Source: Escherichia coli (lineage in GTDB: Bacteria; Pseudomonadota; Gammaproteobacteria; Enterobacterales; Enterobacteriaceae). Taken from it: 64,000 nucleotides of DNA. Position numbers and translations under genes: made by a program. This document shows positions 1 through 44,704 of this stretch, piece by piece (within the stretch, counting starts at the first letter, position 1; the number at the start of each line of letters is the position of its first letter). The notes beneath the pieces were generated by a model, which searched no databases, was not told where the DNA came from, and was given only the letters and a program-made list of their open reading frames with translations. The DNA is taken from NCBI RefSeq assembly GCF_003334785.1, contig NZ_QOWV01000007.1; one strand, written 5' to 3'.

Positions 1-170
1 AGCTACCGTTTCCAGTAGTTATCCCCCTCCATCAGGCAGTTTCCCAGACATTACTCACCCGTCCGCCACTCGTCAGCAAAGAAGCAAGCTTCTTCCTGTT
101 ACCGTTCGACTTGCATGTGTTAGGCCTGCCGCCAGCGTTCAATCTGAGCCATGATCAAACTCTTCAATTT
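1..170 (-). rRNA. rrsH: 16S ribosomal RNA, 5' end only (gene continues beyond window start)
   Basis: Reverse complement of 1..170 reads AAATTGAAGAGTTTGATCATGGCTCAGATTGAACGCTGGCGGCAGGCCTAACACATGCAAGTCGAACGG..., the canonical 16S 5' end; mature 5' end at window 170. Operon identity inferred from flanking gmhB. Confidence 0.95.
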
Positions 171-7764: not shown

Positions 7765-7890
<126 letters not shown>

Positions 7891-41632: not shown

Positions 41633-43057
41633 TTACTGCATTAACAGGTAGATGGTGCTGTCGCCGCGCTGAATGTTGAGTGCCAGCACAGACGGTTTGC
41701 TGTCGAGAACTTTACGCAGTTCAGCGATGTTTTTCACTGCCTGCTGGTTCGCGCCAATAATCACATCACCTTTCTTCAGGCCGATCTGCGCAGCCGGAGT
41801 GCCCGTTTTCACGTTGTTCACTACCACGCCCTGATCTTTGCCTTTGTTGCTCATCTCAGCGCCTTCAATGCCGTTGAAGATGGAGCTGGAATCAACCTGA
41901 TTCTGGCTGCTCTGCTGCAGTTCCAGGTTCACGTTAACCTGCTTACCGTCGCGCAGTAAGCCCAGGGTCAGTTTGCTGCCTACCGGCATAGTACCCACCT
42001 GAGCACGCAGTGCGGCAAAGCTGCTGATCGGCTTACCGTTCAGTGAGGTGATCACATCACCCGCTTTAATGCCCGCTTTTGCAGCGGAGGAATTAGGCAG
42101 AACCTGGCTTACGAAAGCACCGCGCTGGGCGTCAACTTTCATCGCTTTCGCCAGTTCGGAGTTCAGCTCAGTCCCCATAATACCCAGCTCACCGCGTTTC
42201 ACCTGGCCGTATTCCACCATCTGCGAGGTCAGGTTTTTCACCATGTTACTCGGGATAGCAAAACCGATACCGATGTTGCCGCCGTCCGGTGCGAGGATCG
42301 CGGTGTTGATACCGATCAGTTCGCCGTTCAGGTTAACCAGCGCACCACCGGAGTTACCACGGTTGATCGCTGCATCGGTCTGGATGAAGTTTTCGTAGTT
42401 TTCGGCATTCAGGCCGCTACGCCCCAGCGCAGAGACAATCCCGGAAGTTACCGTCTCGCCCAGACCAAACGGGTTACCAATCGCTACGGTGTAATCACCC
42501 ACGCGCAGTGCATCAGAATCCGCCATCTTAATTGCGGTCAGGTTTTTCGGGTTCTGGATTTGGATCAGCGCGATATCAGAGCGCGGATCTTTGCCAACCA
42601 TCTTCGCGTCGAACTTACGGCCATCGCTCAGTTGAACTTTAATGACCGTCGCGTTATCAACAACGTGGTTGTTGGTGACGACATAGCCTTTATCGGCATC
42701 AATGATGACGCCGGAACCCAGCGCCATGAATTTCTGTTGCTGGCCGCCACCATTACCGCCCTGGCCACCCTGGCAGAACGGAGAGCTCTGGAACGGAGAA
42801 CCTTCCTGGCAGAACGGAGAATCATCACCGAAGAACTGCTGGAAATTACGCGGCATACGCGGCGTATTAACGGTTGTGCTACCTTCTACGTTAATGCTGA
42901 CCACTGAAGGCATCACCTTTTCGAGCATCGGTGCAAGGCTTGGCATCTGCTGGGCTGTCGTTGCTGAAGAAGTCTCAGCCGCCGTTGCAGAGAGCGGAGA
43001 TAACGCCAAACCTAAACTCAGAGCCAGTGCACTCAGTGCTAATGTGGTTTTTTTCAT
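41633..43057 (-). CDS. degP: Periplasmic serine endoprotease/chaperone DegP (HtrA)
   Basis: 474-aa ORF with signal peptide, catalytic GNSGGAL, and two PDZ domains. Confidence 0.97.
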   Translation of the reverse strand: MKKTTLALSALALSLGLALSPLSATAAETSSATTAQQMPSLAPMLEKVMPSVVSINVEGSTTVNTPRMPRNFQQFFGDDSPFCQEGSPFQSSPFCQGGQGGNGGGQQQKFMALGSGVIIDADKGYVVTNNHVVDNATVIKVQLSDGRKFDAKMVGKDPRSDIALIQIQNPKNLTAIKMADSDALRVGDYTVAIGNPFGLGETVTSGIVSALGRSGLNAENYENFIQTDAAINRGNSGGALVNLNGELIGINTAILAPDGGNIGIGFAIPSNMVKNLTSQMVEYGQVKRGELGIMGTELNSELAKAMKVDAQRGAFVSQVLPNSSAAKAGIKAGDVITSLNGKPISSFAALRAQVGTMPVGSKLTLGLLRDGKQVNVNLELQQSSQNQVDSSSIFNGIEGAEMSNKGKDQGVVVNNVKTGTPAAQIGLKKGDVIIGANQQAVKNIAELRKVLDSKPSVLALNIQRGDSTIYLLMQ

Positions 43058-43099
43058 GTATTTCAGTCTCGATTAACAGATAACGCAAAATTGCTGTGT

Positions 43100-43132
43100 T
43101 CTTCAGATTCGTTTTATAGCCTGAAGTTCCGA
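43100..43132 (-). promoter_or_regulatory. sigmaE-type promoter of degP
   Basis: Minus strand GGAACTTCAGGCTATAAAACGAATCTGAAG: -35 GGAACTT, 16-nt spacer, -10 TCTGA. Confidence 0.7.
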
Positions 43133-43186
43133 ACTAAAGTTTCTGCAAAAGGTAAAAATTTATTGTTCGTCTTTACAAAAGCCTGG

Positions 43187-44704
43187 TTATTGTTCTACGG
43201 CCATCAGACGTCGGTATTCATCCCACGCATAGAGGTCGGTCATACCGCTGATATAATCCTGCAGCAGGCGGCAACGGTAATAATATTCCCATAGCGGAAA
43301 CTCAGGAGAATCTGACGGTAATTTACTGACAGCCTCGACATAGGCCAGCCGATGGCGCGTCGAGAGTTTGTGGAATAAGCGCGATTCAATAGGGAAACGT
43401 TTCACCCGTTCTTTTTCTACCAGTTCAGTAAAGTCTGATAACGACAGGCTTAATAAAGGACGATAAATCTCTAATAATCCGCTAATGACCCGATAGCCCT
43501 GCAATTCAAGCTGCTCGACATCTGGATGGCTAAACACATGTTTTACAGCGACATTTTTATATAGCTTAAGAAGATCGCTGCATTCGCTGGCATCTTCCAA
43601 TAATGCATGATTAAACGTTCCGGCGAAAATCGCAGGCAGATTATCAATAAATCGTTGTGCCGCGTAGGGTACCAGTTTATTTAGGGTGTTTACCCGTAAA
43701 TACATAAAAAACTGATCTTCCGTACTGCGGCTTAAACTATTTGAGCGTGATTTTTCCCAGGCATTTTCAACCACCAGCGAAAAGAGCGAACCTTTCTCAT
43801 GCTGGCCCCACGCTTCGTGCAAATGATGATAAAGCTGCTCAACGGTAAATATTCTTTTCTCTACCGCATCTTCAAGGTCTGCCACACAATAGGAGATGTC
43901 GTCGGCAGCTTCCATAATCCACGTTAATGGAAAACGACTGTAAAGCGCCAAATTAAGTTCTTTACGCAACCGGGCAATATAGGCTTCTTCAGAAAGATAA
44001 TAACCCGGCTTTTTCATTAAATAGTGATGTGTCTCAGGCGTTTCGCCACGCCACCACGCCGGACGGGTATATTTTAAAATACCGCCAACCTGTGCCCAGG
44101 TGAGATTCATCCGCATCAATGTATGCACCAGGCGAATGCCTTGTGCATTCCCCTCAAAATGACATAAGTCCTGACGAATCTTGCGCCGCAGCTCGTTAAG
44201 CGGTTCTTCCCCGTCCCGTAAACGTAGTGCCGCCACGCTGCAGCGATCGTCAGTCAGAGGCTGGCTTTCGGCATCTTCCGGGTGCAAACGTTGGCGAAAC
44301 CAGTCATTTATCGCCGCTTCGCCAAAATGACCAAACGGCGGATTGCCGATATCGTGCATCAGGCATGACATCTCAACAATGCTTTCAAAGGGACCGGTCA
44401 GTTCATCCAGGCCGTATGCTTCCAGTAATTTAAGCTCTTTCAGACGGCTTAAAATTTCTTTGGCGATGTAGCGCCCCACCTGCTGGACTTCCATCGAGTG
44501 GGTAAGACGCGTGCGCACGGCGGCATTGCGCTCCAGTGGAAAAACCTGGGTCTTTTGTTGCAGACGACGAATTGCCGGAGAGTTGATGATACGCCCGCGA
44601 TCGCTCTCGAAGATCCGCAGGATCTCATGTTCGGTTTTAACGCCCTGCGGTGAACGGTAACGACGATGCCAGTTTATTTTTTTTCGGAAATCAATCTGTG
44701 CCAT
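43187..44704 (-). CDS. dgt: dGTP triphosphohydrolase
   Basis: 505-aa ORF with HD-domain motif [10 protein letters not shown]. Confidence 0.96.

Follow-up and report, generated by a model that had tools for sequence, protein, structure and literature searches.

We find that the short minus-strand element between dgt and degP, in the 64,000-nucleotide stretch of Escherichia coli DNA analysed here (the window), is almost certainly degPp, the htrA promoter from which E. coli degP is classically transcribed by sigma-E (RpoE, sigma-24). Its -35/-10 region reads cGGAACTTcaggctataaaacgaaTCTGAagaacAcag on the minus strand, and the wider reading down to the degP start codon is ...agttcGGAACTTcaggctataaaacgaaTCTGAagaacAcagcaattttgcg...ATG. 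The original prediction had placed a GGAACTT-N16-TCTGA promoter on this strand, some 45-75 bp upstream of the degP start, and that is what the sequence holds: the two elements occupy 43130..43124 and 43107..43103, with a spacer of 16 nt between them, and lie 46-73 nt from the ATG at 43057 (the -10 element ends 46 nt, and the -35 element begins 73 nt, upstream of it). The agreement with the consensus for sigma-E had also been called close, a wording borne out by a -35 that agrees at 7/7 positions, by the 16-nt spacer and by a TCAAA-like -10 with the invariant C. The suggestion of envelope-stress control of degP is supported by the literature, in which DegP belongs to the conserved core sigma-E regulon (Rhodius 2006) and degP is under both sigma-E and Cpx control. 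The earlier picture is incomplete rather than wrong; it omitted the CpxR sites, an overlapping second start and an RNA thermometer. The core promoter, its mapped starts and the flanking genes are laid out as follows.

43187..44704, minus strand: dgt (dGTPase) coding sequence, with its TAA stop at 43189..43187 (ORF list; NCBIfam NF003429, 896 bits; RefSeq annotation).

43124..43130, minus strand: sigma-E -35 element GGAACTT, at -33..-27 relative to the start at 43097; 7/7 match to the Rhodius 2006 consensus.

43108..43123, minus strand: 16-nt spacer, CAGGCTATAAAACGAA, which includes TATAAA (43118..43113) and a dinucleotide that is polymorphic in E. coli (43122..43121).

43103..43107, minus strand: sigma-E -10 element TCTGA, at -10..-6 relative to the start at 43097; TCAAA is matched at its T, at the invariant C and at the final A.

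43104, minus strand: second mapped start, the G inside TCTGA (MG1655 180837), from TSS-seq; 47-nt leader, 7 nt upstream of 43097.

43097, minus strand: start (+1, an A) of the sigma-E promoter (MG1655 180844), from TSS-seq of 5'-triphosphate-enriched RNA; 40-nt leader.

41633..43057, minus strand: degP (htrA) coding sequence, 474 aa, periplasmic serine endoprotease/chaperone (ORF list, NCBIfam, RefSeq annotation).

The downstream gene had been called degP from its sequence, and rightly so: the 474-aa reading frame scores 935 bits against the NCBIfam equivalog NF008189 (cutoff 720), and the 501 bp around the site carry the dgt|degP annotation in 5,424 of 5,426 complete E. coli genomes, at a query coverage of at least 80%. 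With dgt upstream and cdaR (CdaR) downstream, the order is dgt-degP-cdaR on an E. coli K-12-type chromosome, and the motif lies, on the correct strand, inside the 129-nt dgt-degP intergenic region. The minus strand of the window from 43341 to 42941 is 100% identical to MG1655 180600..181000, and the two coordinate systems are related exactly by window x = 223941 - MG1655 coordinate; RegulonDB records a sigma-24 promoter region at MG1655 180545-180945. Among complete E. coli assemblies, we also noted that one genome of 5,426 is without a match to the dgt-degP junction (window 42900..43400), and that 3 of its 5,428 matches fall on plasmid-labelled records.

Cho et al. 2014, in a genome-wide map of 5'-triphosphate-enriched ends, list two starts for the degP;cdaR transcription unit. 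One of these, 180844, was found with 20 reads in exponential phase and in a condition with glutamine as the alternative nitrogen source, and is absent from the heat-shock condition listing of the same TSS-seq data; it corresponds to 43097, which leaves 5 nt between it and TCTGA and 26 nt between it and GGAACTT. In the sigma-E model of Rhodius 2006, with its -35 element GGAACTT and its -10 element TCAAA with an invariant C, a 16-nt spacer is strongly preferred (range 15-19), the discriminator is 5/6 nt long, 26/27 nt separate the -35 element from +1, and transcription starts with A or G. The geometry of the 180844 start agrees with this preferred geometry, and the start is therefore consistent with TCTGA as its -10 element. 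Promoter and model agree in the -35 element, in the TCAAA-like -10 element with its C, in the spacer, in the position of the start and in conservation among orthologues. The first position of the Rfam family RF02700, the degP leader, falls on 43097 as well, the same nucleotide as the mapped start. Similarly, in Salmonella the start with a 40-nt leader (the 'standard' start) has been found in three studies, the first of which saw the transcript only under stress. The position of the transcription start had been set beforehand as the refuting test of the original prediction; what was found is a start at 180844 (43097) that fits the -10 element and a Salmonella leader of 40 nt that fits it too, with partial dissent from tagRNA-seq (180840/42), which is weighed below. 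Cho et al. 2014 also carry a sigma-24 'binding' entry, which we considered as ChIP support and then set aside, since it was imported from RegulonDB and is not independent. Upstream of the -35 element, the stretch 43131..43165 is A/T-rich, with A- and T-tracts, and CpxR half-sites lie in the same DNA.

Conservation was followed in one genome per species, by a scan for orthologues anchored on a coding pattern (DegP residues 42-50); as the anchor lies in coding sequence, the promoter itself was unable to bias retrieval. The scan yielded 120 loci, nearly all from Enterobacterales, of which we kept the 105 that encode an MK[KR] start and extend 260 nt or more upstream of it; many of the sampled species are closely related, which should be borne in mind in reading the counts. 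The strict motif [GT]GAACTT-N16-TCNNA is found in 86 of the 105 degP upstream windows; over the 1,865,473 strand-bases that these loci comprise, it turns up 4 times as background, a rate of 0.00056 per 260-nt window. When one -35 mismatch and a spacer of 15-17 nt are allowed, the promoter is recognisable in 96 of the 105, and 93 of these 96 have a spacer of exactly 16 nt. Their -35 elements are GGAACTT (55), TGAACTT (34) and GGAACTA (7), and among their -10 elements are TCTGA (47), TCTCA (24) and TCTTA (23), with TCAAA never occurring. The third -10 position, which selection did not force, is T in 98% of the orthologues; the 2.00 bits reached by the GAACTT, TC and A columns, on the other hand, are forced by the selection pattern. 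The base 6 nt after the -10 element is A in 56/96. Even where neither spacer nor leader is related to the E. coli sequence, as in Yersinia, Serratia, Hafnia, Edwardsiella and Lonsdalea, the motif itself has been retained. Seven loci from Enterobacter and Lelliottia have GGAACTA as their -35 element, with the 16-nt spacer and TCTGA intact, and in Yersinia, Hafnia, Edwardsiella and Brenneria the promoter lies 137-221 nt from the ATG, which makes for much longer leaders. The degP sigma-E promoter and its layers of control are already published, and there is nothing new in the promoter itself; the comparative additions made here are modest ones, namely the invariant 16-nt spacer, a -10 element of the form TCTNA throughout Enterobacterales, and a GTAAA-N15-TTTAC pair (described below) that is fixed relative to the -35 element.

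The second of the two starts in the map, 180837, was detected exclusively in stationary phase; a sigma-S ChIP-chip peak (180216-180956) covers it, and there is no sigma-70 peak. Its position, 43104, is inside the sigma-E -10 element, and it is therefore not the product of E-sigmaE bound to TCTGA. In Salmonella a second htrA start, with a 47-nt leader, has been found in three studies and is reported to be constitutive and of low level. The best -10 candidate for the 43104 start is the TATAAA at 43118..43113, which is without the final T and leaves a discriminator of 8 nt. We consider it a serious possibility, falling a little short of an even balance, that E. coli has, like Salmonella, a genuine second degP promoter, with its start in the sigma-E -10 element and its -10-like TATAAA in the sigma-E spacer. 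If this is the case, two holoenzymes would compete for the same (about) 30 bp, the conservation of the spacer in Enterobacteriaceae would be explained, and the thermometer leader would be extended by 7 nt at its 5' end. Mean conservation is indeed higher in the spacer than in the 25 nt that follow the -10 element (0.84 versus 0.25 bits), which would fit a second function and is no proof of one. In the sources examined, this second promoter seems to have no separate entry for E. coli; its Salmonella equivalent is published. A GAAACTT at about 43143..43137 was tried as a sigma-E-like -35 element for the start with the 47-nt leader and rejected, there being no TC..A element 15-17 nt downstream of it.

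A bolder reading of the same data is that most degP transcription comes from this overlapping promoter, of sigma-S/sigma-70 type and possibly CpxR-activated, with sigma-E contributing only under severe stress. The slightly larger number of reads at 180837 (28 against the 20 at 180844), its restriction to stationary phase and the sigma-S peak could all be taken in this way, as could the constitutive Salmonella 47-nt-leader transcript beside the stress-specific 40-nt one, and the raised conservation of a spacer that includes CTATAAA. Cpx-mediated transcription of degP is also said, by Danese and co-workers in 1995, to be only partly E-sigmaE-dependent, and we counted this on the same side. We nevertheless think this reading rather unlikely. 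A consensus promoter/terminator scan of 42950..43350 found no sigma-70-type promoter (and no terminator); the TATAAA lacks its final T; there is no sigma-70 ChIP peak; and a link between RpoS and the degP promoter was not found in the literature searched. Moreover, degP is active from its sigma-E promoter at basal levels of sigma-E, and an overlapping promoter would add to the assignment of the sigma-E promoter, not replace it.

The exact start of the sigma-E transcript has been called into question by tagRNA-seq after controlled sigma-E induction, in which 28 consecutive nucleotides were tagged at degP, and the reported degP start was classed as a processing site, yet responded to sigma-E in the same way as true sigma-E starts; the PdegP 5' end does respond to sigma-E induction. 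The authors of that study predict starts at 180840/42, which are window positions 43101/43099, 2-4 nt further upstream, leaving only 1-3 nt after TCTGA. The sigma-E promoter could be real and its true start be 43101/43099, through a different -10 register or an unusual selection of the start site. This seems to us improbable: 28 consecutive tagged nucleotides amount to poor resolution at degP, a discriminator of 1-3 nt is outside the preferred 5/6 nt, 43101/43099 have no other TC..A element 5-6 nt upstream of them, and TSS-seq, the Rfam boundary and the three Salmonella studies agree on a 40-nt leader.

Taken alone, the match to the consensus is weak evidence, barely beyond chance. The exact motif string occurs once in the window and in none of 100 shuffles, in a test that was made post hoc. 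For the family-level motif, KGAACTT-N16-TCNNA, there is a single occurrence where 0.17 would be expected, and 15 of 100 shuffles contain one or more. GGAACTT-N16-TCAAA with up to two mismatches is not enriched in the window (6 matches against 4.6 expected), and TCTGA agrees with TCAAA at only 3/5 positions. With consensus statistics as weak as these, it is position and conservation that carry the case beyond chance; the probability of the family motif falling on the right strand of the intergenic region would be about 0.17 x 129/128000, or roughly 2e-4. The proposal that the match is a chance resemblance, with degP driven by other elements, can draw on the unenriched two-mismatch consensus, the 15 shuffles and the imperfect -10 element, and is so improbable that it can be set aside, given the right intergenic region and strand, a motif present in 86-96 of 105 orthologues against 0.00056 expected per window, an invariant 16-nt spacer, a mapped start with ideal geometry and the presence of degP among published sigma-E assays; the conservation, in particular, effectively refutes it. 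The window holds only one other reasonably sigma-E-like site on the coding strand, GGAACTA-N16-TCGAA inside rseP (26922..26949, minus strand; MG1655 196992..197019), about 0.9 kb upstream of bamA. It was considered as a sigma-E promoter and rejected, since the TSS table of Cho et al. has no start at the expected position (about 197025).

The preferred reading, then, is that of the sigma-E promoter with its start at 43097. For this reading the sequence, geometry, conservation and Rfam match were computed here, and the sigma-E dependence, Cpx control and thermometer function are taken from the literature. The Gross laboratory included degP in a set of 60 sigma-E promoters whose activity was measured both in vitro and in vivo, and placed it in Cluster 1 (GAAC and a T-tract in the -35 region), a class enriched for strongly competitive cores. 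With the other Cluster 1 promoters (rpoE, rseA, rybB, micA, yraP and others) degP shares the GAAC core followed by a T-tract and the activity at basal sigma-E; in contrast to them, it has TCTGA rather than TCAAA, is an outlier in the in vivo model of sigma-E promoter strength, and has a CpxR module upstream.

The Salmonella Typhimurium htrA promoter is closely similar, with the same -35 element, 16-nt spacer and TCTGA, the same position at -73 from the ATG and the same 40-nt leader, and differs at a few bases in spacer and discriminator. This Salmonella promoter with the 40-nt leader is reportedly sigma-E dependent, as Lewis and co-workers are said to have found in 2009. We take the Salmonella orthologue of degPp to be htrAp3, a name that comes from thermometer-leader reporter plasmids. 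The degP/htrA promoter was reportedly one of the two on which Erickson and Gross originally defined sigma-E in 1989, and we presume the promoter in the window to be the E. coli degPp/htrA promoter of their work and of that of Lipinska in 1988. A text search of the literature for the promoter sequence string returned only unrelated papers. The degP promoter serves mainly as a positive control, being a founding sigma-E promoter that was recognised from sequence alone.

We propose that, during envelope stress, sigma-E would be released from RseA, and that E-sigmaE would bind GGAACTT (-33..-27) and TCTGA (-10..-6), spaced at the optimal 16 nt, and initiate at the A at window position 43097. Phosphorylated CpxR (CpxR-P), bound to a conserved GTAAA-containing module centred at about -72 to -57, would supply a second envelope-stress input; its effect on E-sigmaE from this distance would probably be that of an upstream (class I-like) activator. 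At the start of the transcript, a 40-nt fourU hairpin would mask the Shine-Dalgarno sequence at low temperature, so that translation would be gated by temperature. In this sense the locus is a textbook example of envelope-stress control in layers, 129 bp accommodating sigma-E, CpxR, an overlapping second start and an RNA thermometer. The upstream elements concerned are the following.

43312..43326, minus strand: distal CpxR box 'degP2', GTAAATTACCGTCAG, in the 3' part of dgt, at -255 from the degP ATG (PMC9600279).

43162..43176, minus strand: proximal CpxR box 'degP1', GTAAAGACGAACAAT, at -79..-65 relative to the start at 43097 (list of known CpxR sites, PMC9600279).

43152..43156, minus strand: inverted pentamer TTTAC (the reverse complement of GTAAA), at -59..-55 relative to the start, in the A/T-rich UP-like stretch.

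Both boxes are among the 41 known CpxR sites, and degP2 was also recovered in a genome scan (PMC9600279). The half-sites of degP1 are GTAAA (43176..43172) and a degenerate second one, ACAAT (43166..43162), that matches at 2/5 positions; the published CpxR consensus is the direct repeat GTAAA-N5-GTAAA. A GTAAA stands 45/46 nt upstream of the -35 element in 81 of 82 unique orthologous promoters, a TTTAC stands 25/26 nt upstream of it in 77 of the 82, and 76 have both, at a background density of about 0.0044-0.005 per nt; neither element was forced by the selection of orthologues. These counts at fixed offsets argue that the conserved unit is GTAAA-N15-TTTAC (43152..43176), held at a fixed distance from the -35 element, and TTTAC may be a CpxR half-site that is contacted by CpxR. 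Like the CpxR-activated cpxP, dsbA and ppiA, degP has a GTAAA half-site upstream of its core promoter; unlike their boxes, its second direct half-site is degenerate (ACAAT), it is the inverted pair that is conserved, and the core is read by sigma-E.

Downstream of the promoter, the leader itself is a recognised RNA element.

43052..43097, minus strand: degP/htrA 5' leader, a fourU RNA thermometer (40-nt UTR and ATGAAA), Rfam RF02700.

The match to RF02700 is full length (model positions 1-46 of 46) and scores 77 bits, against a gathering score of 52; the Salmonella leader scores 78 bits. RF02700 describes the downstream partner of the promoter rather than the promoter itself, and its full-length match begins at the transcription start. 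In the cmscan alignment, UUUU (43090..43087) pairs with the Shine-Dalgarno GAGA (43070..43067). The minimum free energy of the leader is -3 kcal/mol (z = +0.95), which fits a thermometer and gives no independent thermodynamic support for one; for the Salmonella orthologue of the htrA thermometer, SHAPE and reporter work are published. Only four of the 18 genera sampled, Escherichia, Salmonella, Citrobacter and Enterobacter, gave a match to RF02700. Since the promoter is spread across Enterobacterales, the thermometer is by far the younger of the two.

Among E. coli genomes, 1,384 carry a 61-bp promoter that shares at least 99% identity with the one in the window, and in another 4,038 the identity is 95-99%. 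In the three E. coli alleles that were aligned, the differences are confined to the spacer, and the -35 and -10 elements, the CpxR module and the leader are the same in all three. The dinucleotide at 43122..43121 is AG in the K-12 type (CAGG) and GC in the majority type (CGCG, as read from one aligned example with two mismatches); the GC state is common to E. albertii and most Enterobacteriaceae. The window is 100% identical to the MG1655 degPp, at the same locus, and both have a spacer allele, CAGG, that is in the minority among complete E. coli genomes. In strain NZ_CP148323.1 the TATAAA of the spacer is changed to TCTAAA as well.

Apart from the degP leader, several Rfam families matched elsewhere in the window above their gathering scores, all on the minus strand: naRNA4/CssrE (92.8 bits) at 7807..7883, the CssrA sRNA (136 bits) at 33147..33256, the t44 RNA (83.5 bits) at 34095..34181 and, at 1..170, a 16S rRNA gene of which the first 164 positions are matched before the edge of the window truncates it.
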